Assembly: GCA_963698625.1 (NCBI GenBank)
Contig: CAVORK010000003.1
Span: 411,317-475,316 of the forward strand
Direction of reading: 5' to 3'
DNA length: 64,000 nt
Source of the DNA: an uncultured Solirubrobacterales bacterium
Lineage (GTDB): Bacteria > Actinomycetota > Thermoleophilia > Solirubrobacterales > 70-9
In this document: one piece after another, positions 8,293 through 57,180 of the stretch
How the letters are laid out: each line of letters starts with the position of its first letter
Position numbering within the stretch: the first letter of the stretch is position 1
Position numbers and translations under genes: made by a program
Notes under the pieces: generated by a model
The model's database searches: none
What the model was told of the DNA's origin: nothing
The model's input: only the letters and a program-made list of their open reading frames with translations

Positions 8293-8308
8293 CCGGAGGG
8301 CTATCACG

Positions 8309-9992: not shown

Positions 9993-10283
9993 GAGCCGCC
10001 CGGCCCGCGGGGTTCGCCCGACGTGTGCCCGCGGTTCGGGAGCGCTTATCGCGCGCGGCCGCCCGTGCGTGGCAACACTCCTGCTCAAGATCAACCCACG
10101 GTGAAGGCGCAGCAGGATCCTGGCCTGCGGCCCTGCGCCGGCCCGGCAATTGACGCCTGGACGGCAATATCGGGGTCATCGGCGCCTTCCCCGCTCCCGT
10201 AGCCTCCGGACTCGGTAGCCTGCTCCCGCTGCGACTTTCCGGCCCTGCCCGGTACCCGTGATGCCGCGGCACCCCCAGAACCC

Positions 10284-11192: not shown

Positions 11193-11442
11193 GGCCGGAC
11201 GGCACCGTTTCCGGGCGGGCGACCGGTCGACCTCGATTTCGCAGCATGCCCGCCTGACGTCGAAAGTGCGCAAAATCCTGCGTCTTTTGAAAAAAAGCGC
11301 ACCCGGGATGGTCGTTTAGTACTACCCTTAGTAGTCAAATCTGTGAAGAAGGGGAACGGATGGGGGTCCTGAGAGATCCGGCAGCGCGCCGGAACGGACC
11401 TCGCAAAGCACCCCGACGGCTGTGAGTTCTCTCTGAGCAGAC

Positions 11443-11467
11443 GGACCGGACACACCGGTCTTTTCTT
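11443..11467 (+). terminator. rho-independent terminator-like hairpin with a T-tract, 250 nt downstream of ubiA and 92 nt upstream of giant gene A
   Basis: GACCGG (11444-11449), loop ACACA, CCGGTC (11455-11460), followed by TTTTCTT. Confidence 0.4.
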
Positions 11468-11558
11468 CGATTTACGGGTTGTTTAAGCAGCATGTTCGAA
11501 GCGAACGCGGAAGAGTTTTCGCGAAATTGAGAGCCGCAGACCAGCAAATGGAGACACG

Positions 11559-14500: not shown

Positions 14501-17500
14501 GGCCAACGTGGGCGAGCAACGTCGACGAAGGCGGTGCTCTCGTCTATCTGAACGGCTTCGTCTACGCCCTGACCGGCAAGGGAGACGGCTTCCGGCGCTA
14601 CGACCCGGGAGCCAACTCCTGGACTGCCCGGGCGGCGACCCCCGACGAACATCAAGTGGGGCGGCGCTCTGACCACCGACGGCACTTACATTTATGCCCT
14701 TCGCGGCGACGGCAAGCCCGATTTTTACCGCTACAACACGGTTTCCAATACCTGGACCTCGATGGCGAGCGCGCCGGCCAACGTCAAGGCCGGCGGCTCG
14801 CTGACCCGGATCGGCAACTACATCTACGCGGTGCAGGGCGACGGCAAGACCGGCTTCTACAGGTACGACATCTCCGCCAACACCTGGTCCACGATGGCGG
14901 TGACGCCCGGCAAAGGTCAAGGCACGGCGGAGCCCTGACGACCGACGGCACGGTGATTTACGCGCTCCAGGGCAACGGCAACGACCGGCTACTGGAAGTA
15001 CACCCCGGCCACGAACACGTGGTCGACGCTGGCGCCGACTTCGACCGACGTCAAGGACGGCGGCGCGCTCGCCTACGTGCCGGCCTCGAACCTGACCGGG
15101 CGTTTCTCCGACCTCACGCTGAACAAGTCCCTGACGTCCTCGGGCGACTCGCTGAAGATCACGATGGAATTCGCCGCGGACCCGCCGGTCAACAACATTT
15201 CACCGGGTACGCTGACGACGACAGCCACCGGCGGCGCGTCCTGTTCGAGCCTGACCGGCCCGGTCCTGGTCTCCGCCGATGACGACTCCGCCGGCACCAA
15301 CGACCCCGTGCGCTACGAGTGGACCTGCGTGGTCGCCGCCGGTACGAACCCGGGAAGTCTCAAGTTCAGCGCCAACGGCACCGGCGCCGGTCCGGCCACG
15401 TTCCCGACCGCGACCTCGAACAGCTCGATCGTCTCGCCGCTGTTGACCTTCACCGTCGGGATTCCCAATGGAGCACCGGATCCGGTGGTCAACGCCGGCG
15501 TAACCGCCTCGAAGAACTACTCGGCCGTCTCGCCGACCGTCGAAGTCGCCACCGGCAGCCCGAACCTCTCGATCGTCAAGTCGAACCACCCGACCGTCGC
15601 CACGGTGCTGAGGCCCGGCGACCAGATCGACTACACGATGGTCGTCGAGAACTCCGGAACCGCTCCGGCCACGAACGTCACTGTCTCCGACCTGGTTCCC
15701 GCGCAGGTCAGCTACGTCAGCTGCACCGGGGGCGTTTCCTGCAGCGAGTCGGCAGGCACGGTGACCTGGAACCTCGGAACGATCAACCCGGGTGACTCGC
15801 AGACGGTCACGTTCTCGGTCATCACCAAGCAGGACCTGGCCGTATCCGACACGGACTACACGGTTCGCAACAAGGCCAGCGTCGACTCGAACGAAACCGC
15901 GCCGAAGGACAGCAATGAAGTCACCAACCGGCTGCGGGTGCTGCCGACGGTGATCAAGGACGTTTCCGAGGTCGACGCGGTGGTCGGAGCAGACGCTCAC
16001 CTACACCGTCCAGGTGAACAACCCCGGTGCCGCCTTCGTCGCCAACGTCACTGACGCAATCCCGGCCGGAGCCAGCTTCAACGGAACCGGTACCTGTTCG
16101 CCGGCCTGCACTTTCGGCTCCGGGACTGTCACCTGGGCCTCGCAGAACATTCCGCCCGGAGGACCGACGACCTTCACCTTCGACGTCACCGTCACCGGAA
16201 CCCCGGGCAGTTCGATCCTCAACGAAGCCGTACTCGATCCCTCGACGCCGAACCTGGATCCGATCACCAGCAACGAGACCGAAACCGAGATCCTGGACCC
16301 GAACCTGGCCATCGACAAGTCCCACACCGGCAACTTCGCCCAGCGGCCAGATCGGCGCGACCTACACGATCGCTGGTCACCAACACCGGACCCGACGACA
16401 CGATCGGGCACGGTCACCGTCACCGACACCCTGCCCGCAGGCCTGACCGCCACCGCGATCGGCGGAGCCGGCTGGAACTGCGTGCTCGCCACTCTGACCT
16501 GCACCCGCAGCGACGTCCTGGCCAGCGGCGCCAGCTACCCGCCGATCACGCTGACGGTCAACGTCGCCAACAACGCACCGGCTCTCGGTCATCAACTCGG
16601 CGACCGCCTCCGGCGGCGGCGACCCGACCCCGGTCACCGACAACGACCCGACGATCATCGATCCGGCCAACCTGGCGATCAACAAGTCCCATACCGGCGA
16701 CTTCAGCCAGGGCCAGATCGGCGCGACCTACACGATCGCGGTGAGCAACAACGGTCCGAGCGCCACCACCGGCACCGTCACCGTCACCGACACCCTGCCC
16801 GCAGGCCTGACCGCCACCGCGATCAGCGGAGGCGGCTGGAGCTGCACGCTCGTCACCCTGACCTGCACCAGGAGCGACACCCTCGCTTCCGGATCCAGCT
16901 ACCCGGACATCACCCTGACGGTCAACGTCGCCAACAACGCCGGCAGCCCGCTGGTCAACTCGGCGACCGCTTCCGGCGGCGGCGATCCGACCCCGGTCAC
17001 CGATACCGACCCGACGGTCATCCGCTCGGTCAACCTGGCCATAGACAAGTCCCACAACGGCAACTTCGCCCGCGGCCAAAACGGAGCGACCTACAACATC
17101 GTGGTCACCAACAACGGACCTGACGCCACATCCGGCACGGTCTCGGTCACCGACTCCCTGCCGGCAGGCCTGACCGCAACCGCGATCAGCGGAGGCGGCT
17201 GGAGCTGCGTGCTCGCCACTCTGACCTGCACCAGAAGCGACGTCCTGGCCAGCGGCTCGAGCTACCCGCCGATCACCCTGACGGTCAACGTCGCCAACAA
17301 CGCACCGCTCTCGGTCATCAACTCGGCCACCGCCTCCGGCGGCGGCGATCCGACCCCGATCACCGACAACGACCCGACGGACATCGATCCGGCCAGCCTG
17401 GCGATCAACAAGTCCCATACGGGCAACTTCGCCCGCGGCCAGATCGGCGCGACCTACACGATCGCGGTCTCCAACCAGGGCCCCGGCGCCACCACCGGAC

Positions 17501-20398
17501 CGTCACCGTCACCGACACCCTGCCCGCAGGCCTGACCGCCACCGCGATCGGCGGAACCGGCTGGAGCTGCGTGCTCGGCTCCCTGACCTGCACCAGGAGC
17601 GACACCCTCGCTTCCGGATCCAGCTACCCGGACATCACCCTGACGGTCAACGTCGCCAACAACGCGCCGCGCATCGGTCATCAACTCGGCGACCGCCTCC
17701 GGCGGCGGCGACCCGACCCCGGTCACCGACGACGACCCGACGGTCATCCGCTCGGTCAACCTGGCCATCGACAAGTCCCACACCGGCAACTTCGCCCGCG
17801 GCCAAAACGGAGCGACCTACAACATCGTGGTCACCAACAACGGACCTGACGCCACATCCGGCACGGTCTCGGTCACCGACACCCTGCCGGCAGGCCTGAC
17901 CGCGACCGCGATCAGCGGCGGCGGCTGGAACTGCCTGCTCGGCACTTTGACCTGCACCAGAAGCGACGTCCTGGCCAGCGGCTCGAGCTACCCGCCGATC
18001 ACGCTGACGGTCAACGTCGCCAACAACGCGCCGGCATCGGTTATCAACTCGGCGACCGTGTGCGGCGGCGGCGATCCGACCCCGGTCACCGACAACGACC
18101 CGACAGACATCGATCCGGCCAACCTGGCGATCAACAAGTCCCATACGGGCAACTTCGCCCGCGGCCAGATCGGTGCGCACCTACACGATCGCGGTCAGCA
18201 ATACCGGTCCGGAGCCACAACCGGACCGGTCACAGTCACCGACACCCTGCCCGCAGGCCTGACCGCAACCGCGATCAGCGGACGGCTGGACCTGCGTCGC
18301 TCGGCACGCTGACCTGCACCCGTAGCGACACCCTGGCCGCCGACTCCAGCTACCCGCCGATCACGCTGACGGTCAACGTGGCCAACAACGCCGGCACTCG
18401 GCTGGTCAACTCGGCGACCGCCTCCGGCGGCGGCGATCCGACCCCGGTCACCGACGACGACCCGACCGTCGTCCGCTCGGTCAACCTGGCCATCGACAAG
18501 TCCCATACCGGCAACTTCACCCAGGGCCAGAGCGGCGCCACCTACACGATCTCGGTGACCAACAACGGTCCCGACGCCACCAGCGGCACCGTGACCGTCA
18601 CCGACACCCTGCCGGCAGGCCTGACCGCAACCGCGATCAGCGGCGGCGGCTGGAGCTGCGTGCTCGGCAACGCTGACCTGCACCCGCAGCGACTCGCTCG
18701 CCTCAGGCGCCAGCTACCCGCCGATCACGCTGACGGTCAACGTCGCCAACGACGCACCGGCATCGGTCATCAACCGCGCCACCGTCTCCGGCGGCGGCGA
18801 TCCGACCCCGGTCACCGACGACGACCCGACCACGATCGAAGAATCGGTGGCCGACGTTGCAGATCACCAAGACCGCAAGCCCCAGCGTCGTTTCTTACGG
18901 AGATACCGTCACCTACACACTGACCGCCAGGAATAACGGTCCCGGAGTGGCGAGAAACGTCGTCGTCAGCGACCCGATCCCGGCAGGTCTGACCTTTGTA
19001 TCGGCTGACGCACCGTGTGGCTTCGCCGCCGGAACCGTCAGCTGCGACCTCGGAGCCCTCAACCCGGGTCAGGAAGTAGTCCTCGAGGTCAAGGTCAAGG
19101 TCGACCCGCCGACGCCGACCGACCCGAACCTGGAACACCTGCTGGACGTCCAGAAGGTGGAGGCCCAGATCGATCTCGAAGCCGGCCAGGAGCGCACAGT
19201 CTCGGTCACCTGCCCGAGCGGATACTTCGTCTCTGACGGCTCGGTCCGGATCGACCAGATCGACCACGGCACCGGAGACTGGACCGCAGCCCAGGTTCTG
19301 TCTTCCGAAGCGAGCTCCCAGGACACCTGGCGAGGCGTCGTCAGGAACACCGCGACCGGTCGCGCCCAGGCGAAGATCTTCGCGGTCTGCATCAAGCGCA
19401 CAACCAACCAGATCGACGGCCATACGCATGATCTGACCATTTCCGGCCCGGTAGTAGTCGCCGAGACGGTCACCGCCGGTCCGCGCGAGGCGATCCTGCC
19501 CTGCCCCGCAGGCACGGTCGCAATCCAGCCCGGGTTCTCCTCCACGGCTCCCGCCGACCTGGTCTACTCGCAGCCCGAGGGCGACGGCTGGAAGTTCGTT
19601 CTCGACGTCTCGGCACCGGCTGACGTGACCTTCTCGATCCGCTGCATGTCGAGGCAGACCACCTCAAGCAACAGCCACGACCACAACCTCGACCTCAAGA
19701 GGATCTGGACCGAAGTCACGGTCCAGGGCGGCACTGTCAACGAGGCGCAGCTCACCTGCCCCGACGGCAGCAAGGGCATCGTCGCCGGCTGGGATCTCGA
19801 TCCCGGGCTGGTCAGCCTCGGAAACGACCCGCGTCCGGTTACCAGGGCCTTCAAGCTCTACAACCCGACCATGGGACCGCTTACCGCCAGGCTCAGCCTG
19901 CTTTGTCTCGGCAACATGACCAGCGGCCACAACGTCGGTCCGACCCAGATCGTCAACACGGCATACGTGTCGACTACGTCCAACGACGACAACAACGCCA
20001 ACAACCAGTCCTCCGCGACCATCACGGTCAACGCTTCGGGTACCAATAACCCCATTCCAGAGCCGGATCCGGACAAGCCGGTGGTCAACAACCCGATCGG
20101 GATGAGCCTCGGCGGCGACGTCATCTTCCGTCGCAACCGACTCACGGCAACAGTGACATGCGCGGGTGCCTGCTCGGGCAAGGCGAAGCTGTTCTCCGCC
20201 AGGACGGTCAAGGTCGGCAAGAAGAAGGTCCGCAAGGGCACCCTGCTTGCCAAAGGCACCTTCCGCTTCAACTCGGCCGGCAAGCGCCAGCTGAAGCTCA
20301 AGGTCAACCGGATCGGCCGCAAGGTCCTGAAGAAGAACGGCAAGGCCGTCCTGAAGCTCTCGTCGGGCGAGAAGAAGCTGGTCCGGGTCAGGCGCTGA
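11559..20398 (+). pseudogene. giant secreted surface protein A (~2940 aa if the frames are joined). Order: signal peptide, head type 1, Kelch-like propeller, DUF11 domains, 7 x 121-aa repeats, shared C-terminal module. The reading frame is broken at least ~20 times in this sequence.
   Basis: TTG start at 11559 with GGAGA 5 nt upstream. Signal peptide MNRAGRAVIRFTALLSILVAGLFAAATGPANA. ORF-track pieces 11559..12002, 11926..12510, 12335..14023, 13797..14672, 14656..15282, 15077..16054, 16014..17123, 16741..17535, 17827..18312, 18060..18923 and 18857..20398 are collinear with gene B and gene C protein sequence. Each break is a 1-2 nt indel, and I saw no in-frame nonsense codon. The breaks may be assembly errors rather than true decay. 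Confidence 0.6.
16302..18845 (+). repeat. tandem array of 7 x 363-bp coding repeats (121-aa CX6C unit) inside gene A
   Basis: Unit starts (the AAC/AGC CTG GCx ATx codons of N-L-A-I-[ND]-K-S-H) are at 16302, 16669, 17032, 17395, 17758, 18121 and 18483. Spacing is 363 bp, except 367 for the first unit (four 1-nt insertions) and 362 for the sixth (net -1). Confidence 0.9.
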
Positions 20399-38700: not shown

Positions 38701-39724
38701 AATGGACGACCCGCTGCCCGCCGGACTGACCAACCCCACGGTCACGACCGAACAGGGAACCTGCGATCTCACCGTCAGCTGCTCACTCGGCACGATCCCG
38801 GCGAACGGTTCGGTGCTCGTCCTCATTGAAGCTGACATCCCGGCCGACGCAGTTGTCGGAAGCACGGTCAGCAACACGGTCACGGTGACTACCACCACTG
38901 ATGACAAGGATCCTGATGACAACACGTCTACTTCGACCACGACTGTGTCGCCGCCCACTCCGGGCAAGGCGGAGATCGCGATCACCAAGAAGCTCAGCAA
39001 CCAGAAGGTCACCCTGGGTGACATCGTCACCTTCAAGCTGACCGCCAGAAACAGCGGCGACGCTGCGGCGAAGAACGTCGTGATCAAGGACACCCTGAGC
39101 TCCAAGCTGAAGTACGTCAGCTCGAAGATCCCGGGCGGCAACTGCTCGGTCCAGGGCGCAACCGTCACCTGCAAGGTGTCGAAGCTGGCCGCCGGCAAGT
39201 CAGTGACCGCGACGATCAAAGCGCGGGCGATCGAGCCTGGGCAGGTGGCCAATACCGGCACAATCCAGGCCGACGACAGCAAGATCACGAAGCGCAAGTC
39301 GACTATCAAGTTCCCGGTCGACAAGGGCCAGACGAAGATCGGCATCGTCAAGACCGCCCTACGCAAGAAGACCAGGGATGGCAGCCGGGTCTCGTTCCGT
39401 ATCGAGATCACCAACCTGACCAACCAGGCAGCTACGGATGTCGAGATCTGCGACATCCTGCCGGGCAAGACCACGATCATCCGGTCCAAGGAAGGACGCA
39501 AGATGTCCGGAGGCAAGCTCTGCTGGACAATCGACTACCTGCCCGGTGGAGCCGTGCGGGGTGCATGGGTGACCCTCAGGGTTGACAACTTCACCTCACT
39601 GGATGAGCTGACCAACATCGGAACGGTCACTGCCGGCAATACGAAGGGCAAGAAGAAGTCGTCGGCAAAGGTGAAGCTGGTCCAGCGGACCAGCTCGGCA
39701 CGAGGCGGCGGTGTCACCGGTTAG
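20710..39724 (+). CDS. giant secreted surface protein B (~6330 aa). Order: signal peptide, head type 1, Kelch-like propeller, DUF11 domains, 35 x 121-aa repeats, 4 DUF11 domains (the last two lysine-rich). About 9 frame breaks in this sequence.
   Basis: The ORF opens at 20692. TTG 20710 gives MKSGNRLVVRFTAFIAVLVAVAAFAFGTQSATA, which is residue-for-residue parallel to the gene A N-terminus. ORF pieces 20692..22776, 22697..28831 (2044 aa), 28776..31154, 31075..35976, 35171..36406, 36363..37079, 36769..37749 and 37451..39724 are contiguous in protein sequence. Indels lie at about 22708, 28781, 31060, 35332, 36292, 36432, 36612 (+2), 36798 and 37592. DUF11-like signatures include ..LSVTKSNNPGPLAILRPGDGIQYTMVVENTGTTPATNATLTDLVPAQV... 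Confidence 0.8.
23435..24216 (+). other. Kelch-like six-bladed beta-propeller region within gene B (the equivalent region in gene A is ~14270-15060)
   Basis: Six ~45-aa repeats of the pattern GGAL.TDG..[IV]YAL.G.G...F..Y.....W. Examples: GGALTTDGTYVYALRGDGKPDMYRYDPGTDAWTTMAPLPQNVKD and GGALTTDGTNIYGLQGNGQTVFWKYTVATDTWSTLPATSAQVKE. Confidence 0.65.
25442..38242 (+). repeat. tandem array of 35 x ~363-bp coding repeats (121-125-aa CX6C unit) inside gene B, with higher-order duplications
   Basis: Unit starts are at 25442, 25805, 26168, 26531, 26894, 27257, 27620, 27983, 28346, 28709, 29082, 29445, 29808, 30171, 30534, 30897, 31261, 31624, 31987, 32359, 32722, 33085, 33448, 33811, 34177, 34540, 34912, 35275, 35639, 36011, 36375, 36741, 37117, 37492 and 37868. 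The array ends where ..DLALTKSAP.. begins at 38243. Confidence 0.9.
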
Positions 39725-40445
39725 CAGGATTCTGAGCGCCGCCCTGGTCCTGTCAGCACTCTGGCTGGGCCCGGTCGGCGTGGCTTCAGCCGGCACCACG
39801 GCCAACTACACGGGCGTGACCGGCAAGAGCTCCTGGTCGGCGCGCATCATGATTCGGACGAAGGCCTGGAGCCGGCCGGGCAACCGGGGTCGTGTCCGGA
39901 CGACCCTGCAGACGCAGTCAACCTGGGCCAAGGGTCCCCAGCACCTTCTGGTTCTGAACTCGGCCCAGGTGAAAGGCAGGACCTGGATCAAGGTCCGCCT
40001 GGCCTCCCGGCCCAACGCCGCTTCGGCCTGGATCCCTGCGAACCGCGCCCGGGTGGTCCGGAATCCGTGGCGGGTTCTGATCTCGAGGGGGGACCGCAAG
40101 GTGACTGTTTTCAAGTCGGGCAAGCCGGTGGTCAGGTTCCGGTCCGTTATCGGTGCCCCTGAGACTCCGACGCCCAAGGGTCTCTTCGCGATCTACGAAA
40201 AGGTGAGGCAGGTGCCTTCAAACGGCTTCCTCGGCCCGTTCGCTCTACACCTGACCGCGCATTCGAACGTGCTCGACAATTACGGGGGAGGCCCCGGGCG
40301 GGTCGCAATCCATGGCCGCGACGGCCTGTCCCTGCTCGACCCGCTCGGCACGGCACGTTCCCACGGCTGCATTCGGGTCAACAACAGCAGGATCAGGTTC
40401 CTGGCGAAGAAGCTGCCACTCGGCACCCCGGTGAGGATCCGCTAG
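39711..40445 (+). CDS. secreted L,D-transpeptidase (YkuD domain) with an N-terminal SH3-like region, overlapping the end of gene B
   Basis: GTG at 39711 with GAGG at 39702-39705. It overlaps the gene B stop (39722-39724) by 14 nt. Signal peptide ..ILSAALVLSALWLGPVGVASA. Catalytic motif ..IHGRDGLSLLDPLGTARSHGCIRVNN.. (the SHGC[IV]R signature of YkuD enzymes). Confidence 0.85.
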   Translation: MSPVSRILSAALVLSALWLGPVGVASAGTTANYTGVTGKSSWSARIMIRTKAWSRPGNRGRVRTTLQTQSTWAKGPQHLLVLNSAQVKGRTWIKVRLASRPNAASAWIPANRARVVRNPWRVLISRGDRKVTVFKSGKPVVRFRSVIGAPETPTPKGLFAIYEKVRQVPSNGFLGPFALHLTAHSNVLDNYGGGPGRVAIHGRDGLSLLDPLGTARSHGCIRVNNSRIRFLAKKLPLGTPVRIR

Positions 40446-40737: not shown

Positions 40738-43700
40738 ATGTCCAAAAGGAAAATCTCGGAGAACAAATTGAAGTCCGTCGCCCGTACTGCCATCCGTTTC
40801 GCGCCAGTCATTGCGGTTCTCGCCGCTGGCCTGGCGGCGGCTGCTCCCGCTCAGGCGGATCGTGCTTTCAGCTTGCGTTTCTCGGCTACTGAAGCCGGAA
40901 GCATCGGCGGCATCGCCAACAGCAACATGAGCTGCTCCACGGCCAGTGGCGATTTTGGAGCCAGCACCTGTGTGGATGCCCGCAACGCCGCCGTCACTGA
41001 CTCGGTCGACAGCTCTACCAACTGGCGGAACAACAACGCGCACACGATGACTTACGTCGATGTGGATGGCGTGGCTTCAACCTTCAACTCGTCGTCGGCG
41101 AATCAGTCGCTTCCTGCGGGCTCGACGATTCTCTATGCAGCCCTCTATTGGGGAGGGCACTATGCCGGTGCCACCAGCCCCGCCAATCAGAACATTCGCG
41201 ACCAGGTGAAGTTCAGGGTCCCCGGTGCTACGGGCTATCAGACAGTTACTGCTTCCACTGTTGATGACGGGGTCGGCGGCAATGCCGGGCGGTATCAGGC
41301 ATTCGCCAATGTGACCAGTCTGGTGCAAACGCTGCCGAATTCCGGCAACGGGACATACACCGTCGCCGACATTCAGTCTGCGGTCGGTAGCGACCGCTAC
41401 TCGGGATGGAGCCTGATCGTCTCCTACAAGAACCCCTCCGAGACCGTAAAGAACATGACGATCTATGACGGCCTGGTTTCGATTTCAGGAACGACGACGG
41501 CCGACATTCCGATTTCCGGCTTCCTCACTCCGCCAGCCGGTCCGGTCAACGCTGAGGTGGGCTTCGTGGCCTGGGAAGGTGACCTGGCCCTGATCGGTGA
41601 TCGGGCGCAGCTCAATGGTCAGTTCCTGTCTGACGCGCAGCATCCGTCGAACAACTTCTTCAATTCCAGAATCTCCCAGAACGGAGTCCTGTTCACCGAT
41701 CGAAATCCGTCGTACCCGAATTCACTCGGTATGGATGCGCTCCGTACTCCGGCCCCGGCGGGGTCGGTCACCAACTCGCAGACTTCGGCGACGGTGAGGG
41801 TCCGCAGTGACGGTGATTTCTACCTGCCAGGGGTCATCACTTTCCAGGTCGAGGTCTACTCACCGAAGGTTGACCAGCTGAAGTCGGTGGTCGATGACAA
41901 CGGCGGTGTTGTCGAGCAAGGCGACACCCTTACCTACAAGATCTCCGGCAAGAACAATGGCCTGGACGGCACGGCCAACTTCGTGCTGAGAGACCCGATC
42001 CCGCCGAACACGACTTACGTGCCCGGTTCGATCAACGTGGTCAAGAATACGAATGCTTCCACCGGAGTCCGGACTGACGCGTTCGCTGACGACATCGCCG
42101 AGTTCGACTCTCCCAACAACCGGATCATCGCTCGCCTCGGTGAAGGATCAAATGCCTCAACCGGAGGCAACGTCAAGCCAGGCAATGAATACGAGGTGAC
42201 CTTCAAGGTCAAGGTCAATGGACCGAGTCCGAACCCGGTGGCAAACGACACCGTCCTGACCAATACGGCGACCGCAAGCTTCCTGAGCCAGACGACGTCA
42301 AGCCCGCTGAACACAGCTTCGACGGTGGATGCGACCGTCAAGACTCCGGACTTGACGATCAACAAGTCGCATTCCGGAAACTTCCGCCAGGGCCAGACGG
42401 GCGCCCAGTACTCCCTCGCGGTGACCAACCAGGGCCCGGCCGGCACAAACGGCCAGGTCAGCGTCACCGACAACCTGCCGACCGGCCTGACCGCCACCGC
42501 CATTTCCGGCACCGGCTGGAACTGCGTGCTCGCATCTCTGACCTGCACCCGCTCGGACGTCCTGGCCGCCAACGCCAGCTACCCGCCGATCACGATGACC
42601 GTCAATGTGGCCAACAACGCGCCTGCTTCGGTGATCAACAGCGGAACGGTGAGCGGCGGTGGAGACCCCACCCCGAGCACGGCCAACGATCCGACCACCA
42701 TCCTCAGCACCAACCTGGTCATCGACAAGTCCCATACCGGTGACTTCCGCCAGGGACAGACGGGTGCCACCTACACGCTGGCCGTGACCAACAGCGGCCC
42801 GGACCCGACAACCGGAACCGTCACCGTCACCGACGCCCTGCCCGCAGGCCTCACAGCCACCGCGATCAGCGGAACCGGCTGGAACTGCGTGCTCGCAACT
42901 CTGACCTGCACCCGCTCGGACGTCCTGGCAGCCAACGCCAGCTACCCGCCGATCACGATGACCGTCAATGTGGCCAACAACGCGCCGGCATCGGTGATCA
43001 ACGGCGGAACGGTGAGCGGCGGCGGCGATCCGACCCCGAGCACCGACAACGATCCGACCACGATCAAGTCGATCAATCTCGTGATTGCCAAGAGCCATAC
43101 CGGCAACTTCCGCCAGAGCCAGACCGGCGCCCAGTACACGATCGCGGTCACCAATAGCGGACCCGATCCGACCCAGGGCCAGGTCTCAGTCACCGACACC
43201 CTGCCGACCGGCCTGACCGCCACCGCGATCAGCGGCACCGGCTGGAACTGCACGCTCGCAACCCTGACCTGCACCCGCTCGGACGTCCTGGCCGCCAACG
43301 CGAGTTACCCGAACATCACGATGACCGTGAACGTGGCCAACGACGCGCCGGCCAGCGTCGTCAACTCCGGCACCGTTACCGGCGGTGGAGACCCCACCCC
43401 GAGCACGGCCAACGATCCGACCACGATCCTCAGCACCAACCTGGTCATCGACAAGAGTCATAGCGGCAACTTCACCCAGGGCCAGACCGGGGCTCACGTA
43501 CACACTCTCGGTCACCAACAGCGGCCCCGACGCCTCGACCGGCCTCGTGACCGTGACGGACTCGCTGCCGGCCGGTCTGACCGCCACCGCAATAGGCGGC
43601 ACCGGCTGGAACTGCACCCTTGCCACGCTGACCTGCACCCGAAGCGACGCACTGGCCGCCAACGCCAGCTACCCGAACATCACCCTGACCGTCAACGTCG

Positions 43701-46700
43701 CGAACAACGCACCGGCCAACGTTGTCAACTCCGGAACCGTTACCGGCGGCGGAGACCCAACGCCTTCGACCGATGTCGATCCGACCGACATCGGTACCGA
43801 TGTGAATCTGGTCATCAACAAGTCCCACAGCGGCAACTTCCGCCAGGGCCAGACCGGCGCCCAGTACACGATCGCGGTGACCAACAACGGACCGAGCGCC
43901 ACAACCGGACAGGTCTCGGTCACCGATGCGCTTCCCACCGGGCTGACCGCAACTGCGATCAGCGGCACCGGCTGGAACTGCACCCTCGCCACACTCACCT
44001 GCACCCGTAGTGACGTGCTCGCAGGAAACGCCAGCTACCCGACGATCACGATGACCGTGGACGTGGCCAACGACGCCCCGGGCTCGGTTATCAACTCGGC
44101 CGCGGTCTCCGGCGGCGGAGACCCGACCCCGAGCACCGACAACGACCCGACCACGATCCTTTCGACCAACCTGGTCATCGACAAGGCCCACAGCGGCAAC
44201 TTCCGTCAGGGACAGACCGGCGCCCAGTACACACTCTCGGTCACCAGCAACGGCCCCGATGCCTCGACCGGACAGGTCTCGGTCACCGACGCCCTGCCCG
44301 CAGGGCTGACCGCCACCGCCATCTCAGGCTCTGGCTGGAACTGCGTGTTCGCAACCCTGACCTGCACCCGTTCGGACGTCCTGGCCGCCAACGCCAGCTA
44401 CCCACCGATCACGATGACCGTGAATGTGGCCAACAACGCGCCGGCGTCGGTGATCAACAGCGGAACTGTCTCCGGCGGCGGAGACCCGACCCCGAGCACC
44501 GACAACGACCCGACCACCATCCTTTCGACCAACCTGGTCATCGACAAGAGCCACAGCGGCGACTTCACCCAGGGCCAGACCGGGGCTCAGTACACGCTCG
44601 CGGTCACGAACAATGGCCCCGACCCCACCGTCGGCCAGGTCTCGGTCACCGACAACCTGCCGGCCGGTCTCAGCACAACCGCGATCAGCGGCACCGGCTG
44701 GAACTGCACGCTTGCCACGCTCACCTGCACCCGCTCTGACGTGCTCGCGGCAAACGCCAGCTACCCACCGATCACGCTAACCGTCAACGTCGCCAACAAC
44801 GCGCCGTCGTCAGTCATCAACTCCGGCACGGTCAGCGGAGGCGGAGACCCGACCCCGAGCACAGACGACGATCCGACCACGGTCAAGAGCGATCAACCTC
44901 GCGATCAACAAGTCCCACACCGGCAACTTCACCCAAGGCCAGACAGGTGCGACCTACACCCTGCTGGTGACCAATAGCGGCCCTGATGCCACAAACGCGC
45001 CGGTTGCCGTAACTGATGCCCTGCCCTCCGGCCTGACCGCGACCGACATCGCCGGCCCGGGCTGGAACTGCGTGCTCGCAACTCTGACCTGCACCCGAAG
45101 CGACGCCCTCGCGGCCAACGCCAGCTACCCGAACATCACCCTGACCGTCAACGTCGCCAACAACGCACCGGCGAACGTCATCAACTCCGGCACCGTTACC
45201 GGCGGTGGCGACCCGACGCCCAACACCGATGTCGATCCGACCGACATCGGTACTGACGTCAACCTCGCGATCGACAAGTCCCACAGCGGCAACTTCCGTC
45301 AGGGCCAGACCGGCGCCCAGTACACGATCGTCGGTGACCAACAACGGACCGAGCGCCACAACCGGCCAGGTGTCGGTCACCGACGCCCTGCCCACCGGGC
45401 TGACCGCAACTGCGATCAGCGGCACCGGCTGGAACTGCGTTTTCGCAACACTGACCTGCACCCGCAGTGACGTACTGGCTGCCAACGCGAGCTACCCGCC
45501 GATCACGATGACCGTGAACGTCGCGAACAACGCCCCGGCGTCGCTCGTCAATTCGGCGTCAGTTTCAGGCGGCGATGACCCCACCCCGAGCACGGACGTC
45601 GACCCGACCACGGTCCTGTCAACCAACCTGGTCATCAACAAGTCCCATAGCGGCGACTTCCGCCAGGGCCAGACCGGCGCTACTTACACGCTCTCTGTCA
45701 CCAACAGCGGCCCCGACGCCTCGACCGGACAGGTCACAGTCACCGACTCCCTGCCGTCGGGCCTCACCGCGACCAACATCGACGGCCCGGGCTGGAACTG
45801 CGTACTCGCAACCCTGACCTGCACCCGTTCGGACTCGCTGGCCGCCAACGCCAGCTACCCGCCGATCACCCTGACCGTCAACGTCGCCAACAACGCGCCG
45901 TCGTCAGTCACCAACTCCGGCACGGTCAGCGGAGGCGGCGACCCGACCCCCAACACCGATGACGACCCGACCACGATCCGCTCGATCAACCTCGCGATCA
46001 ACAAGTCCCACACCGGCAACTTCACCCAGGGCCAGAGCGGAGCGAGCTACACGATCTCGGTCACCAACAACGGCCCCGACCCCACCGTCGGCCAGGTCTC
46101 GGTCACCGACAACCTGCCGGCCGGTCTCAGCGCAACCGCAATCAGCGGCAGCGGCTGGAACTGCGTGCTGGCCACGCTCACCTGCACCCGGTCGGACTCG
46201 CTGGTCGCCAATGCCAGCTACCCGCCGGTCATCATCACTGTAGATGTCGCAGGCAACGCCCCGGCATCAGTGGTCAACAGCGCCACCGTCACAGGCGGTG
46301 GAGACCCGACGCCGAACACCGACGACGACCCGACCACGATCGAGGAATCGGTGGCCGACGTCGAGATCACCAAGACCGCCAACCCGACCACCGTCTCCTA
46401 CGGCGACACGGTCACCTACACGCTGAAAGCCAAGAACAACGGTCCCGGCAAGGCCAACAACGTCACCATCACCGACCCGCTGCCGTCCGGCGTCAGCTTC
46501 GTATCCGCCGACGCCCCATGCCTCAACGCTTCGGGCACGGTCACCTGCCAGCTTGGAACGCTCCAGCCCGGCGATGAGGTCACGCTTCAGGTCACGGTCA
46601 AGGTCGACCCGGCGGCGCCGAGCGACCCGAACCTCGAGCACCTGCTCGACGTCCAGAAGGCCGAAGCACAGATCGATCTGAATCCCGGCGAGCAGAAGAC

Positions 46701-47904
46701 CGTCTCGGTCACCTGCCCGAGTGGCTACTTTGCCTCCGACGGCTCGGTCCGGATCGACCAGATCGACCACGGAACCGGTGACTGGCCGACGCAGCAGGTA
46801 CTCGAGTCCAGGGCCAGTTCGCTCGACACCTGGCAGGGCACCGTAAAAAACACCGCCACCGGTCGCGCCCAGGCCAAGATCTTCGCCGTCTGCATCAAGC
46901 AGACGACCAACCAGATCGACGGACACACCCATGATCTGATCGTCTCGGCACCGGTTACGGTCACCGCGGCGGTTCCTGCCGGCCTCCACGAGGAGACCCT
47001 CGCCTGCCCCGCAGGTACGGTTGCGATCCAGCCCGGCTTCAGCTCGACCGCTCCCGCCGACCTCGTCTACAGCGAGCCTGAAGGCAGCGGCTGGAAGTTC
47101 AGGCTTGACGTGAGCGCCGATGCCGACGTCACCTTCTCGATCCGCTGCATGTCGAGGCAGACCACCTCAAGCAGCGGCCACGACCATAACCTCGATCTAC
47201 AGCACATCGTTGCCGAGGTCACGGTCGAAGGCATGACCGTCAACGAGGCCCAGCTCACCTGCTCCGATGGCTACAAGGGCATCGTCGCCGACATGGACCT
47301 CGACCCCGGACTGGTCAGCCTCGGTAGCGACCCGCGTCCGGTGACCAGGGCCTTCAAGCTCTACAACCCGACCATGGGCCCGCTCAAGGCACGCATCAGC
47401 CTGCTTTGCCTGGGCAACATGACGAGCGGCCACAACATCGGTCCGGTTCAGATCGTCAATACCGCCTACATCACGACCACCTCCAACGACGAGACCCCGG
47501 CCAACAACCAGTCCTCGGCGACCATCACGGTGAACGCCACCGGCACCAACAACCCGATTCCGAACCCGGACCCGGACAAGCCGGTCGTCAACAACCCGAT
47601 CGGCATGAGCATCGGCGGAAGCGATGTTGCCCTGCGTGGCAACCGCGCCCTGGTGACGGTGAACTGCTCAGGTGCCTGCTCCGGCAAGGCCAGGCTGTTC
47701 TCAGCCAGGACGGTCAAGGTCGGCAAGAAGAAGGTCGGCAAGGGCACTCTGCTCGCCAAAGGCACCTTCCGCTTCAACTCGGCCGGCAAGCGCAAGCTGA
47801 AGCTGAAGGTCAACCGGACCGGTCGCAAGGTCCTGAGCAGAGGCGGCAAGGCCCTGCTCAAGCTCTCCTCGGGAGAGAAGAAGCTGGTGCGCATCAAGCG
47901 CTGA
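40738..47904 (+). CDS. giant secreted surface protein C (~2385 aa). Order: signal peptide, head type 2, DUF11 domain, 11 x 121-aa repeats, shared C-terminal module. About 3 frame breaks.
   Basis: ATG at 40738 (the ORF track opens at TTG 40726). Signal peptide ..ARTAIRFAPVIAVLAAGLAAAAPAQA. ORF pieces 40726..44010, 43385..44977, 44967..45470 and 45205..47904 are contiguous in protein sequence, with indels at about 43495, 44891 and 45330. The C-terminal 515 aa are closely similar to the end of gene A. Confidence 0.8.
42349..46356 (+). repeat. tandem array of 11 x 363-bp coding repeats (121-aa CX6C unit) inside gene C
   Basis: Unit starts are at 42349, 42712, 43075, 43438, 43805, 44168, 44531, 44895, 45261, 45625 and 45988. 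Spacing is 363 bp, or 364-367 where there are indels or a 1-aa longer linker. Confidence 0.9.
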
Positions 47905-51100: not shown

Positions 51101-54100
51101 AACACGAGCAACAACGCCAACCGTCGCGGTCAAAGCCGGACCAACCAGGCCACGGTCAGCTGGACCGACGGAATCCCTTACAGCGCCGACTCGAATCAGG
51201 TGTCGACGACTATTGTCGAGCCGCTCATCTCCCAGAGCAAGACGAACTCGGTCCAGCCAGGCTCGGCCCTGCCCGGAGATACCGTCACCTACACGCTGGT
51301 CACCAGGAACTCCGGTTCTTCCAACGTCAGCATCGCTCACGACACGGTGATTCGCGACGTCGTACCCGTCGGAATGACGCCGGTCGATGCCGGTGGCAGT
51401 CCGCTGGCTGACGGAGTCCTCGTACCCGGAACCGGGGGCTCAACCTGGAACCTCGGCGAGCCGTACGATCACCTCACCGGCGGTTGACATCAATCCCGGT
51501 GCCAACGTGACCTGGAGCTACAAGGCGAAGATCGACAGCCCCGCCATCGCGGGCGCCAGCCTGGTCAACACGGCTGATGCGAAGACGACGTCGATCAGCG
51601 GCAGTGATCCGAACGAGCGCACCTCCGCCAGCCCATACAACACCGGTTACGTCGCGTCCTCGAGCAGCGCCGTGAAAGTCACCGGGGCAACGGTGGCCAA
51701 AGCGGTCGACCCGGCCTGGGCCACAATCGGCACGCCGCTGACCTACACGGTCGACCTGACCATCCCGAAGAATCTGACCATGTTCGACCTGACCGCGGTC
51801 GACACACTGCCGGACTCGCTCGACTTCGACAGTTACACCTCGGCGACCTGTGTTTCCGGCTGCCCGGCCAACCCCGCCCCGACAGTTCAGACCTACGACC
51901 CGGTGATCACGCCTTCGTCGACCACGATCGCCTGGGACCTCGGCAACATCACGCCGGGTACCACCGACCGCGTCATCCGCTTCACCTTCAGGGCGCATGT
52001 GCGTGACACGTACCGCTCCAGTGGTGCCAAGGTCAAGGCCGGGGACAACATCGTCAACGTGGTGCGCGCCCAGTCGAACCTGAGCGACAAGTTCACCTTC
52101 AACCCCGCCAGCCTGCCTGCCGTCAACACCTTTGACTACGTATCGCCGAACGCGACCGTGAGCACCCCGGTTCGCGAGCCGAACATCGCGCTCGACAAGA
52201 AGGTGAAGGTCAACTCCGGTTCCTTCGTGGACGGGCCGGTTCAGAGCCAGCCCGGCGACACGCTGACCTACAGCCTCGCCGTGAAGAACAACGGCTCCAG
52301 CGCCGCCTATGACATGGTCGTGACCGACAAGCCAGATACGAAGATCACGAACGTGGTTCTCGCTCAGGGCGCAGCTTTCAACACTGACGGATGGACCCAG
52401 GCCGACCCGACCATGAAGTGGACCATCCCCGGTCCGATCGCGCCCGGTGAGACGGTGACCCTGACCTACACCGCCGAGCCGCTGCCCTCAGCCCAGCTTC
52501 AGGCCGGCGACAGGGCGATCAACACCGCCGGCTCAAATTACTGGGGCCTGCCGTCTTCCGAGCGGAGCAACCCGTGGACCTACCGCAACTACGACAGCAA
52601 CAACGACACCGTGCGTGTCAACTTCGACTTCCCGGAGATCTCGGTCAACAAGACGACCACGGCCCCGGGTTTCCCGGACATCGCCGATGCTCCGGTGCTG
52701 CAGCCCTTCGGCTGGAGGATCGTCGTCAGGAACAACGCGACCACCGCCAGGGCGCTCGACACCGTGGTCAAGGACACTCTGCCGCCGGCATGGACCTATG
52801 ACGCCGGTTCGACCGCGATCACCGGAGCCGTCACCGCCGAGCCATCCGTCGTGACCAACCCGGCCGGCGACGCGCTGACCTGGGACTTCACAGGTCAGAC
52901 GATCCAGCCTGGTGCCAGCGTGACGATCACCTTCACTGCCACCCCGCAGCTCGCTGCGCGCCTGAACCCGCCGGTCCAGGTCAACGACGCGCACGCCGAC
53001 GCCAGGGACGCCAGCGGTAGCGACCGCAACCTCGACGGCCCCTACACCGACGAAGACGACGCCAGGGCGACACTGAAATTCCCGAAGAACGACCTCGAGA
53101 TCGACAAGAGCGCCCCGGCGGTCGTCGAGTCGCAGGCGACCTTCGACTACACGATGAAGGTGACCAACAACGGACCTGACCCTGCGACCGGCGTGGTCAT
53201 CAACGACCCGCTGCCCGCCGGCCTGACCTTCATCAGCTCCGGCGACTGCAGCCCGGCCATGGTCTGCAACCTCGGATCGCTCGCAGTCGGGGCCAGCAAG
53301 ACCGTCACCGCTCAGGTCAAGGCGACTTACGCCGTTGCCGGCACGATCGTGGTCAACACCGCGGTGGTCACCGGCAACGAGTTCGAGACCAACATCGACA
53401 ACAACACCGACACGGTCGAGACCAAGGTTCTCGGCGAGCCCGATGTCAAGATCACCAAGACCGCGATGCCGACCAACCCGCGTCCGGGCGACATCATCAC
53501 CTACAGGCTCAAGGCCGAGAACGTCGGTACCGCGATCGCCGAGAACGTGGTCGTCACCGACACCCTCCCGGTCGGAGTCACCTTCGTCTCCGCCGACTCG
53601 CCCTGTGTCGAGAACGCCGGCAACATCAGCTGTGAGACTCGGCTCGATGACCCCGGGTGACGTGATCTGGCTCGAAGTCAAGGTCAAGGTCGACACCTGG
53701 GGCAACGCCAACACCGACGGCCGACCACCTGATCGACGTCCAGAAGGTCGAAGCACAGATCGACCTCGAAGCCGGAGAACAGAAGACCGTCTCGGTCACC
53801 TGCCCGTCCGGATACTTCGTCTCCGACGGCTCGGTCCGGATCGACCACATCGATCAGGGCACCGGCGACTGGACCGCGCCGCAGGTTCTCGAATCGCGGG
53901 CATCGAGCCTCGATACCTGGCAGGGAACCGTGAAGAACACCGCCACGGGCCGCGCCCAGGCCAAGATCTTCGCGGTCTGCATCTCGAAGAAGACGGTCGA
54001 TGTACGACGACCACAGCCACGACCTGATCACGAGCGACCAGATCTTCGTCAATCACGAAGCCCTAGCCGGCAAGGACGAGGCTACGCTCCAGTGCGGACC

Positions 54101-54995
54101 CGGCCAGATCGCGATCCAGCCCGGCTTCAACTCGACCGCCCCGGCCGACCTCGTCTACAGCGAACCCGAGGGCAACGGCTGGAAGTTCATCCTCGACCTC
54201 AAGGCCGACGGCTGACGTCACCTACTCGATCCGCTGCATGACCCGCCAGGTCTCGGTTGTCAACGGCCATACCCATGACCTCAAGCTTGAGCACCTGGTC
54301 AACGAGGTCACGATCCAGGGCAACACGGTCAACGAGGCCCAGCTCACCTGCGCCGACGGCTACAAGGGCATCGTCGCCGACATGGACCTCGACCCCGGAC
54401 TGGTCAGCCTCGGCAACGATCCGCGTCCGGTGACCAGGGCCTTCAAGATCTACAACCCGACCGATCGGGCCCGCTCAACGCAAGGATCAGCCTGCTCTGC
54501 CTGGGCACGAGGACCGGTGGCGAGCACCTGCCGCCAAAGGTTCTGGTCAACAGCGCTCACATCACGACGACCACGTTCGAGACCGTCACGAGCAACAACA
54601 TGTACTCGGCCACGGTCATCGCGGAGGACACCGACAACCACACCCCGGTGACTCCGAAGCCTCCGGTCAAGCCGACCCCGAACAACCCGATCGGCATGAG
54701 CATCGGCGGAAGTGACGTCGCCTTCCGCGGCAGCGAGGGTCCTGGCCACGGTCAAGTGCACCGGAGCCTGCTCACGGCAAGGCCAGGCTGGTCTCGGTCA
54801 AGACGGTCAAGGTCGGCAGGAAGAAGTTCCGCAGGGGCACCGTGCTCGCCAAGGGCAGCTTCAGGTTCAACACGGCCGGCAGGCGCAAGCTGAACCTCAA
54901 GGTCAACGAAGAAGGGCCGCAAGGTCCTCAAGCAGACCCCCAAGGCCCTGCTGAAGCTCTCCTCAGGCAAGCAGAAGCTCGTCCGCATCCGGTAG
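48102..54995 (+). CDS. giant secreted surface protein D (~2295 aa). Order: signal peptide, multiple DUF11-type domains (no 121-aa repeats), shared C-terminal module. At least 10 frame breaks, concentrated after 53.6 kb.
   Basis: TTG at 48102. Signal peptide MSPAIKTPLSLLAAILALLMGLAFASTAQA. ORF pieces 48102..50054, 49756..50736, 50885..51487 and 51387..53660, plus short pieces to 54995, are contiguous in protein sequence. DUF11-like units include ..DLEIDKSAPAVVESQATFDYTMKVTNNGPDPATGVVINDPLPAGLTFISSGDC... The end, ..GRRKLNLKVNEEG / RKVLKQTPKALLKLSSGKQKLVRIR (stop 54993-54995), parallels the tails of genes A and C. Confidence 0.7.
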
Positions 54996-55079: not shown

Positions 55080-55396
55080 CTACTCGTGGATTTCGAGTTC
55101 CGAGGCGAGTTCGGTCTTGCCGTCTCTGGTGAACTGGACGTCGACCGTTTCGTTCTTGCGGTAGGTGCCGAAGAAGCCGAGGTACATCGCCAGCCAGCGG
55201 GACATGCCGATCTCCTCCTTGATGATCTCGCGGGTGAAGACGATCTCGCTGCCTTCGAACGTTGTAGTCCTTGCCGGCGGTCTGGGTGACACCGTTGATG
55301 AAGACGATGATCGGTTCGGTCGCGCCCTGCGGCAGCCTGACCCGGCGGCCGGCCGCGTACGAGCCCTTGGGGACCTCTTTCTTCGGATTCGCTCAT
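55080..55396 (-). CDS. small hypothetical protein (~105 aa), frame broken twice
   Basis: ATG (complement of 55394-55396) overlaps the stop of the upstream small ORF in an ATGA arrangement. The joined translation is MSES/KKEVPKGSYAAGRRVRLPQGATEPIIVFINGVTQTAGKDYNV/FEGSEIVFTREIIKEEIGMSRWLAMYLGFFGTYRKNETVDVQFTRDGKTELASELEIHE. I do not recognise a family. Confidence 0.4.
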
Positions 55397-55739
55397 CGCT
55401 GGAGAGTCTCCCTCATCGATTCGACGATCTGCTTTGCCGTCTCACCTTCCAGCGGTTTGCGGCTGACCCCGCCGGAGAAGCCGAGCAGGGAATTGTCGCC
55501 GCGGATGTCGACCCCGGCGGTGGGCGGGGAGATGAATCCCTTGCCGGACATCTCGATCCTGGCTTTGACCAGCTGCTCCGGCTCGTAGTCGCGAATCGCG
55601 CTTGACCGAGTCCAGCGGGGCGTCAGCGGCGATCGCTTCGATGCTGACCCCGGGCCGCTTCGAGCGCGGAGTCGAGATCGTCGAACTTGACCCGGCTCAC
55701 GTCGGAGCCATTGCGGACTGTCAGCTTCCAGGCGGCCAA
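55393..55739 (-). CDS. small hypothetical protein (~115 aa), frame broken once
   Basis: Possible TTG start just after the citrate synthase stop. Joined translation: MAAWKLTVRNGSDVSRVKFDDLDSALEAARG/SIEAIAADAPLDSVKRAIRDYEPEQLVKARIEMSGKGFISPPTAGVDIRGDNSLLGFSGGVSRKPLEGETAKQIVESMRETLQR. The stop is coupled (ATGA) to the next ORF. Confidence 0.35.
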
Positions 55740-55757
55740 ACCGGTGGCAGGCGTTGC

Positions 55758-57180
55758 TCAGGGACTCGGGCGCCTGGCCGGCGGACCGTCGATCCGGTCA
55801 CCGCCGCTGCGCTCGCCGATCGGTACGTAGTCGGCCTCGCGGGCGCCGGTGTAGATCTGGCGTGGACGCGAGATCTTCTTCTCGGGATCGTCGGTCATCT
55901 CCATCCACTGGGAGATCCAGCCGGCGGTGCGGGGGATGGCGAAGATCACAGTGAACATTTCCGGCGGGATCTTCAGCGCTTCGTAGATGATGCCGGAGAA
56001 GAAGTCGACGTTCGGGAAGAGCTTGCGCGAGGTGAAGAAGTCGTCGTCGAGGGCGCGCTTCTCGAGTTCGGTCGCGATCTCGACCAGCGGGTTGTACTCG
56101 GTCGCTTCGAGCACACCGTCGGCATGCTCCTTGATGATCGCGGCGCGCGGGTCGTAGTTCTTGTAGACCCGGTGGCCGAAGCCCATCAGCTTCTCTTCGC
56201 GGTTCTTGACCTTCTCGAGGAAGTCGGGAATGTTCTCGACGGTGCCGATGTGGCGCAGCATCTTGAGCACGGCTTCGTTGGCACCGCCGTGAAGGCGGCC
56301 GTAGAGCGCGGCGATGCCGGCGGCGACCGCCGAGTACGGGTCGACGTCGGAGGAGCCGACTCCGCGCACGGCGCTGGTCGAGCAGTTCTGCTCGTGGTCG
56401 GCGTGGAGGATGAAGAGGACGTCGAGCGCCCGGGCCAGACGGGGATCCGGGTCGTACTTCGCCTCGGTCATCTTGAACATCATCGAGAGGAAGTTCTCCG
56501 AGTAGGAGAGGTCGTTGTCCGGGTAGACGTATGGCAGGCCCATGTTGTGGCGGTACGAGAAGGCCGCCAGGGTCGGCATCTTGGCGATCAGGCGGATCGT
56601 CGCCAGGTAGCGCTCGACCGGGTCGTTGATCTGGTTGGAGTCCGGGTAGAAGGTCGAGAGCGCACCGGTCGAGGCGAGCAGCATGCCCATCGGGTGGGCG
56701 TCGTAGCGGAAGCCGGTGAGGAACTTCTTGATGTCCTCGTGGACGAAGGTGTGGTGGGTGACGTCGTGGACCCAGGACTCGAGCTGCGGGCGGGTCGGCA
56801 GCTCGCCGAAGACCAGCAGGTAGGCGACTTCGAGGTAGGTCGACTGCTCGCAGAGCTGTTCGATCGGGATGCCGCGGTGCTCGAGGATCCCGGCCTCGCC
56901 GTCGATGTAGGTGATCGAGGAGCGGCAGGAGGCGGTATTGGTGAAGGCCGGGTCGTAGGCCATCATGCCGAAGTCGTCTTCTTTGACCTTGATCTGGCGG
57001 AGGTCCATCGCCCGGATCGTGTCGTCTTCGATCGGCAGTTCGTAAGATGCGGCCGGTGCGGTTGTCGGTGACGGTGAGCGAGTCGTTCGACACTTCGGGG
57101 CCGGCTCCGTTTCCGTCCGTTCCGGCTACATCGGCGACATCGCCCTCGGCAGCATCGTCAGTCTTTTCCTCGGTACCCAT
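55758..57180 (-). CDS. gltA: citrate synthase (type II), frame broken once near 57040
   Basis: ORF 55758..57008 carries canonical citrate synthase sequence (..ITYIDGEAGILEHRGIPIEQL.., ..LFILHADHEQNCSTSAVR.., ..GFGHRVYKNYDPRA..). The N-terminus (MGTEEKTDD..SLTVTDNRTGR) lies in the frame of ORF 55798..57180 and joins ..SYELPIEDDTIRAMDLRQIKV after a 1-nt indel. Confidence 0.9.

Follow-up and report, generated by a model that had tools for sequence, protein, structure and literature searches.

The window analysed here is a 64,000-nucleotide stretch of DNA from an uncultured Solirubrobacterales bacterium (assembly GCA_963698625.1, contig CAVORK010000003.1, positions 411,317 to 475,316), with a G+C content of about 65%. 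Four giant plus-strand genes (A to D), all built of DUF11 repeats and all with signal-peptide-like N-termini, fill about 11.5-55 kb of the window. The 3' ends of genes A, C and D are formed by the same block of about 1.55 kb, encoding about 515 amino acids (aa), which we call the cassette. The domain family DUF11 (PF01345, TIGR01451) is now renamed CLIPPER (PMC12617251). A first-pass annotation of this DNA had reported the shared block on all three genes, and every motif that it quoted could be located there. The sharing holds for copies A and C, each of which is one open frame through the stop codon; over the whole 515 aa they are 80% identical in nucleotides and 79% in amino acids, far above chance. 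It does not hold in the same sense for copy D, which has a DNA identity of 76% and, as written, is not encoded in a single frame.

The cassette comprises a CLIPPER domain that is divided by a three-repeat domain (the knob), a Pro-rich linker and a basic tail domain. The three copies, and the parts of copy C, are located as follows (pLDDT, predicted local distance difference test).

18853..20398, plus strand: cassette copy A, intact, with the knob at 19133-19924 and the tail at 20096-20395; identified by its one-frame identity to copy C
46357..47904, plus strand: cassette copy C, intact, at the 3' end of gene C
46357..46635, plus strand: copy C, N-terminal part of the CLIPPER domain (DVEITKTANP...VKVDPAAPSDPNL), carrying ITK, whose Lys is the putative isopeptide residue, and TDPLP, whose Asp would be catalytic
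46636..46917, plus strand: copy C, repeat 1 of the knob (EHLLDVQK...C27...C86...), six predicted strands with pLDDT mostly >85; H2, C27 and C86 invariant
46918..47175, plus strand: copy C, repeat 2 (GHTHDL...C124...C171), aligned with repeat 3 by hhalign; H99, C124 and C171 invariant
47176..47427, plus strand: copy C, repeat 3 (GHDHNLDL...C209...LGSDPRP...C258); H182, H184, C209 and C258 invariant
47428..47538, plus strand: copy C, C-terminal strands of the CLIPPER domain (..QIVNTAYITTTSNDETPANNQSSATITVNA), with the putative isopeptide Asn; splicing them to the N-terminal part restores DUF11
47539..47601, plus strand: copy C, Pro-rich linker (TGTNNPIPNPDPDKPVVNNP), pLDDT <50
47602..47904, plus strand: copy C, basic Ig/Fn3-like β-sandwich tail and stop codon, assigned from AlphaFold2, Foldseek and charge
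53442..54995, plus strand: cassette copy D, with 8 frame-shifting insertions, delimited by three-way alignment with A and C

Directly upstream of copy C, the stalk of gene C (42375-46341) is made of about 11 tandem 363-nt (121-aa) repeats of the DUF11/DUF7933 type, which are 74-86% identical.

The three-repeat knob and its CLIPPER host domain

Crystal structure 9IFR established CLIPPER as a CnaA-like stalk domain with an Asp-catalysed Lys-Asn isopeptide bond (PMC12617251). In the cassette as encoded, the DUF11 match covers profile positions 1-85/86 of 114 and scores 89.6 bits. When the knob is excised in silico, the match extends over positions 1-114 of 114 and reaches 107 bits (E 8.9e-31), and the canonical last DUF11 strands (..IVNTAYITTTSNDETPANNQSSATITV) are positioned after repeat 3. 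At the level of sequence, profile matching places the knob inside the CLIPPER domain that ends the stalk, as an insertion ahead of the final strands of this domain. The earlier description of DUF11 as a separate unit ahead of the rest of the module has to be given up, as the domain is split, with about the first 86 profile positions before the knob and the last strands after it. The part beyond DUF11 had been said to correspond to no named domain, and it indeed matches no Pfam family at E<=10, no NCBIfam family and no PDB sequence.

The putative Lys (ITK), Asp (TDxLP) and Asn (VNTA) of the isopeptide chemistry are found in copies A and C and in frame-corrected copy D, and in 73 family sequences the conservation of this triad is 95% or more; the Lys aligns with K715 of PDB 9IFR. 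The triad would be expected to form the usual CLIPPER bond, running from the first strand to the strand after the insert. Since such a bond bridges the strands that flank the insert, it would, if formed, close the knob into a covalent loop. The passages of PMC12617251 retrieved by a term search make no mention of a large domain nested in CLIPPER. An isopeptide-clamped scaffold that tolerates an insert of 264 residues could be of use as a protein-engineering part.

The knob itself (about 264 residues) consists of three homologous repeats of about 85 residues, each of which opens with an (H)xHxL strand and contains a single Cys pair. With hhalign, repeat 1 aligns with repeat 3 at a probability of 92.8% (E 4e-7, 80 columns) and repeat 2 with repeat 3 at 95.4% (E 1.8e-8, 82 columns); in these alignments the His motif is in register, and so are the first and last Cys. 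The His motifs, previously taken as spacers between Cys-bracketed segments, are each the first strand of a repeat, and repeat 1 has one too, which reads EHLL in the window, relatives having DHDHLL or PDHDHQ. Ten residues are invariant in a 17-sequence family-wide alignment (H2, H99, H182, H184, C27, C86, C124, C171, C209 and C258), and of these H2, H99 and H184 occupy equivalent positions. As each repeat contributes one equivalent invariant His, a metal site is possible.

We modelled the 422 residues that follow the N-terminal DUF11 part of copy C with AlphaFold2. The model is all-β, with a mean pLDDT of 82.5 and about six strands per repeat (DSSP). In a Foldseek search of the PDB, PCSK9 entries make up all of the top 25 matches. 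At the domain level, the highest-ranking match is to the complete C-terminal domain of PCSK9 in 7anq_A (probability 1.0, E 9.6e-5), with 265 columns aligned and a TM-score, normalised to the target, of 0.62. Apicomplexan perforins are matched more weakly, by their three-repeat APCβ domain, a β-prism (E 5e-3 to 1.4e-2, TM-score 0.23-0.35, root-mean-square deviation >10 Å). In the sequence searches, hmmscan against Pfam at E<=10 found no PCSK9 family for the knob, nor did profile searching against PDB sequences, also at E<=10, bring up a PCSK9 chain or anything else beyond DUF11. As modelled, the knob resembles the PCSK9 C-terminal domain, which we take to be Pfam PCSK9_C1-C3, at the fold level only, homology being unproven.

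The three modules of the PCSK9 C-terminal domain (CHRD), M1-M3, are alike in structure and show structural homology to the trimer of resistin (PMC9515655, PMC9113161), and each module carries three disulfides (six Cys) (PMC9113161). Like the CHRD, the predicted knob has three tandem, approximately six-stranded β-modules in one chain, with conserved Cys and His. Unlike the CHRD, it is bacterial and has one Cys pair per repeat in place of three disulfides per module, and it is nested in a stalk domain, whereas the CHRD of PCSK9 follows a subtilase. The likeness to the PCSK9 CHRD/resistin fold is a curiosity, and could inform the origin of the fold if homology were shown.

The basic end domain and the spread of the cassette

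Residues 295-322 are the sole disordered stretch of the AlphaFold2 model (pLDDT <50). The tail that ends the cassette (about 95 aa) was modelled with a pLDDT of 89.8 and a predicted TM-score of 0.79 as a β-sandwich with one short helix. In Foldseek its nearest neighbours are GH3 β-glucosidases, by way of their Fn3-like C-terminal domain (E 3e-4 to 3e-3, TM-score 0.4-0.56 normalised to the query). The tail has no Pfam, NCBIfam or PDB sequence match. The GH3 Fn3-like family, presumably PF14310, likewise gave no Pfam match to the tail at E<=10. Like the corresponding domains of DesR (4I3G) and BglX (6R5I), on which the model superposes, the tail is a small Ig/Fn3-type β-sandwich. It differs from them in being extremely basic, in having a CxxxC turn and in standing alone at the end of a fibre instead of being packed on an enzyme. 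The tail had been described as polybasic and β-rich: its basic charge is borne out, and the model is that of a folded domain of about 95 aa, not of a sorting peptide.

The tail of copy C has a net charge of +27 and an isoelectric point (pI) of 12.0, with 28 Lys and Arg against 1 Asp or Glu in 92 aa, whereas the knob is acidic, as are the CLIPPER parts and the stalk repeats (pI 4.1-4.9). Distant relatives show the same polarity: their tails carry net charges of +10 to +39, against a pI of 4.3-5.4 for everything else in the protein; tails that are too divergent for a tail hidden Markov model (HMM) still have +21 to +27. Between branches the tails share 20-35% sequence identity. Being basic throughout at so low an identity, they conserve charge better than sequence. 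The last 100 residues form a Lys/Arg-rich β-domain with no hydrophobic stretch. As had been stated for LPXTG, PEP-CTERM and similar signals, Pfam and NCBIfam detect nothing other than DUF11, with no match to the known C-terminal sorting signals LPXTG, PEP-CTERM, GlyGly-CTERM, Por_Secre_tail or those of archaeosortase.

A word-indexed search of 5.8 billion proteins returned 32 relatives, and their named sources are Solirubrobacterales, Actinomycetota or Nocardioides. When one genome of each GTDB species was scanned, 127 encoding stretches came to light, several genomes having more than one copy. The carriers are Solirubrobacterales, Conexibacter, Capillimicrobium and metagenome-assembled genomes (MAGs) of Thermoleophilales, together with many Nocardioides isolates, among them the cultivable N. 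soli DSM 105498 and N. ferulae; judged by these sequence searches, the cassette is confined to Thermoleophilia and Nocardioides. Among 75 related loci, the knob lies 128-170 aa before the stop of long open reading frames (ORFs), and the end of the tail is the end of the ORF. Almost all tail-bearing ORFs (70 of 72) also carry the knob, the other two being contig-edge or frameshift fragments. A role of the tail as a generic C-terminal sorting signature, a possibility raised at first pass, is not supported, as the tail was seen only beside this module and is predicted to be a folded domain. The word-indexed search with the tail alone and with a 21-sequence tail profile yielded only fragments of the same family, a weak negative given that its E-values are scaled to 5.8 billion sequences and its prefilter needs shared 5-mers.

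Representative proteins were searched for with a profile dominated by DUF11, and giants were taken from its best 150 matches. Intact proteins that end in the cassette include ones of 928, 1,520, 1,549, 2,290, 2,642 and 5,328 aa. The longest of these has two knobs, and a tandem double knob occurs in some relatives, such as P0066. The intact relatives have N-terminal signal peptides and CLIPPER arrays, and their N-terminal parts vary: they include pAdhesive_15 (an ice-binding-like adhesive domain, P0119), AgI_II_C2 (P0168) and FG-GAP/VCBS repeats. The view that the module is common to otherwise different proteins is upheld by this diversity. In the N-terminal ORFs of the window's own giant genes, no Pfam adhesive domain was found. 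Three proteins (P0014, P0015 and P0017) consist of a signal peptide and a knob only, which makes the knob an autonomous secreted domain. At loci L022, L025 and L034 (P0014, P0017 and relatives), such stand-alone knobs, of about 304 aa, are encoded amid housekeeping genes in the same genomes as giant genes. A candidate lipobox in stand-alone knob proteins was rejected on inspection.

The three-repeat Cys/His knob and the basic Ig-like end domain represent two new domain families, encoded in at least 127 genomic places. In the literature and libraries searched, we did not find a description of either family, of a large folded domain inside a CLIPPER/DUF11 isopeptide domain, or of a link to the PCSK9 CHRD fold.

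Possible retention at the envelope and other candidate functions

In Thermoleophilia and Nocardioides, the cassette-bearing giants are best read as secreted surface proteins that resemble fibrillar adhesins. CLIPPER proteins that have been characterised combine a signal peptide with adhesive domains and a stalk of CLIPPER units, and the C-terminus of CLIPPER adhesins is an anchor or sorting element of the LPXTG, Por_secre_tail, CHU_C or OmpA-like type (PMC12617251). The cassette proteins are like these fibrillar adhesins in being long and acidic, with signal peptides, tandem CLIPPER stalks and a conserved triad. They are unlike them in that the usual anchors are replaced by the basic β-sandwich, the anchor position being held by the nested knob, the Pro-rich linker and this end domain. 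The reading that we favour, with somewhat less than even confidence, is that the cassette is the cell-proximal, non-covalent envelope-retention base of giant CLIPPER-stalk fibres. In such a fibre, the N-terminal signal peptide would be cleaved and the adhesive domains would lie on the N-terminal side; the Pro-rich linker would span the wall, and the strongly basic terminal domain would hold the acidic fibre (pI about 4-5) on the anionic envelope electrostatically and non-covalently. The knob could then act as a rigid, isopeptide-clamped platform for binding or spacing at the base, and may bind a metal or a ligand.

As a kind, giant CLIPPER-stalk proteins with a C-terminal retention element are already known. 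Charge-based, non-covalent retention on the wall is also familiar from the basic C-terminal regions of Lactobacillus S-layer proteins and from GW modules. The cassette proteins share with these retention domains a basic terminus on an acidic secreted protein and the lack of a covalent sorting motif; they differ in that no sequence or family relationship to the S-layer or GW domains was detected, and binding by the tail is putative. Gene B, which has neither knob nor tail, closes in two atypically basic DUF11/CLIPPER domains (39270-39724; its last 150 aa have a net charge of +17) and repeats the polarity of acidic stalk and basic end of genes A, C and D. This basic end provides independent support from within the window for retention by charge. 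If true, the retention model would explain how abundant, little-studied actinobacteria of the soil keep their giant fibres attached in the absence of signals of the LPXTG type.

Several points weigh against this reading. The stand-alone, tail-less secreted knobs show that the knob has a function that does not depend on anchoring. The likeness to PCSK9 is confined to the fold, with 11-14% identity, no profile match and 2 instead of 6 Cys per repeat. The basic domain could equally have extracellular DNA (eDNA) or an anionic substrate as its target, or attach to neighbouring fibres through their acidic stalks.

The existence of secreted stand-alone knobs favours a binding role, and the cassette could be the ligand-binding working end of the protein, directed at an anionic target (eDNA, polysaccharide, mineral or plant surface), with the protein released or held in some other way. 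The knob's structural neighbours are binding modules too, in PCSK9 (the CHRD) as well as in apicomplexan perforins (APCβ), and no conserved anchoring partner gene is found near the module. However, the recognisable adhesive domains of the relatives sit N-terminally, and a Pro-rich linker ahead of the final domain, as seen here, is typical of wall-spanning segments. Characterised CLIPPER adhesins also anchor by their C-terminus (PMC12617251), and we consider a working end at this position unlikely.

The extreme charge polarity of each protein (a tail of pI 12 against 4.3-5.4 for the rest) and the invariant His at an equivalent position in every repeat could alternatively serve assembly. Tails would dock on the acidic stalks of neighbours, or His knobs would oligomerise around a metal, to build a sheath or matrix; the clustering of several paralogous giant genes in the window and the tandem two-knob relatives such as P0066 are consistent with this. 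The knob, however, is already an internal pseudo-trimer, in which three repeats in one chain replace resistin-like trimerisation, and so need not oligomerise. We regard an assembly module as quite unlikely. The His residues also figure in another reading that we hold to be quite unlikely, in which the cassette is an unrecognised kind of non-covalent envelope anchor for the giant adhesins of Actinomycetota that lack sortase motifs. Here the isopeptide-clamped, PCSK9/resistin-like knob would carry its three His on a pseudo-threefold axis as a metal or pH switch that controls attachment or assembly. Were this true, the CHRD fold of PCSK9 would have in the knob its first relative from bacteria.

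Neighbouring genes were surveyed by clustering 4,515 stop-to-stop ORFs from the 75 loci. They show lineage-specific synteny only: citrate synthase and UbiA in the Solirubrobacterales, and an extracytoplasmic function (ECF) sigma/anti-sigma pair and a helicase in Nocardioides. The clustering of the 75 loci revealed no sortase, L,D-transpeptidase (LDT) or secretion partner, and no neighbour conserved across both clades. Some 16 Nocardioides loci (e.g. L045 and L063) have the ECF sigma/anti-sigma pair roughly 1.5 kb upstream of the gene that encodes the module, which may reflect plain synteny or a regulatory link.

These surveys bear on two further proposals. The C-terminal domains of type IX secretion substrates are folded and lie at the extreme C-terminus, as does the β-sandwich of about 95 aa that ends the cassette, and the tail could by analogy be a recognition domain for a dedicated sorting or secretion machinery. 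We regard this as very unlikely: the tail is detected only on knob-bearing proteins, no neighbouring gene is conserved across both clades and the hosts are monoderm Actinomycetota. The conservation of the tail is low in sequence but high in charge, a pattern that fits a physicochemical role better than specific recognition.

The other proposal, raised at first pass, is that the cassette is the substrate of a neighbouring LDT and becomes linked to peptidoglycan in the manner of Braun's lipoprotein. It draws on the Lys-rich tail and on a gene inside the cluster:

39711..40445, plus strand: YkuD-type L,D-transpeptidase with a signal peptide, overlapping the end of gene B, in the adhesin cluster

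This gene, however, abuts gene B, which is without the cassette. Of the 75 loci, only 2 have a YkuD homologue at a distance of 10 kb or less from the module, and no LDT is annotated in the syntenic relative, MAG GCA_942491915.1 (L002). The C-terminal residue of the cassette proteins is variable and usually Arg (..IKR, ..VRR, ..RIR, ..LQG, ..VGH), with no conserved Lys. Linkage by an LDT is on these grounds extremely improbable, and retention of the fibres by charge remains the account that we prefer.

Frameshifts and surroundings of the island

In the three-way alignment with A and C, copy D has 8 insertions, of which seven add 1 nt and the other adds 2 nt; they lie near 53637, 53695, 54004, 54209, 54464, 54735, 54774 and 54908. 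Their removal yields a stop-free protein that is 67% identical to C and has all motifs intact. A three-frame Viterbi analysis of codon usage recovers exactly these 8 events and indicates many further shifts (dozens, nearly all +1, i.e. single-base insertions; roughly 45 such changes at 11.5-55 kb) across all four giant genes; in the gene C stalk, the 363-nt repeat spacing becomes 367, 364 and 364 at three affected units. Flanking housekeeping genes are hit as well, by at least three more changes, with a FAD-oxidase homologue that switches frame near 9812, and two small genes at 55.1-55.8 kb (55080-55800) that also do so.

Among the closest relatives, which come from a long-read MAG project (records MFD...), the genes are similarly truncated, whereas Illumina MAGs and Nocardioides isolates have intact ORFs with 1,200-2,300 aa upstream of the module. 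The orthologue of copy D in L002 is intact and in a single frame, with 79% identity, at the end of a gene of 2269 aa. The frameshifts of copy D are most likely assembly indel errors, as the corrected protein is stop-free and conserved, all events are insertions, and the housekeeping genes and the long-read MAGs are broken in the same way. That copy D is a decayed pseudogene was judged less likely than assembly error, and recent decay of the giant-gene island is still conceivable. Assembly noise does not fully account for the strong bias towards insertions or for their uneven spread, with 8 of them in copy D and 0 in copies A and C.

The island is bounded by UbiA (10284-11192) and citrate synthase (55764-57047, minus strand). 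In L002, the syntenic slot (7792-19005) holds only two adhesin genes in about 11 kb, compared to about 43 kb here, which indicates that the island has expanded, or differs strongly, between close relatives. Within the island, the N-terminal third of gene A (14479-15280 and adjacent frames) contains repeated motifs (..GGALVYLNGFVYALTGKGDGFRRYDPGANSWTA..) that have no Pfam match at E<=1e-3. These repeats resemble the blades of a Kelch or other β-propeller, and may constitute the functional head of gene A.

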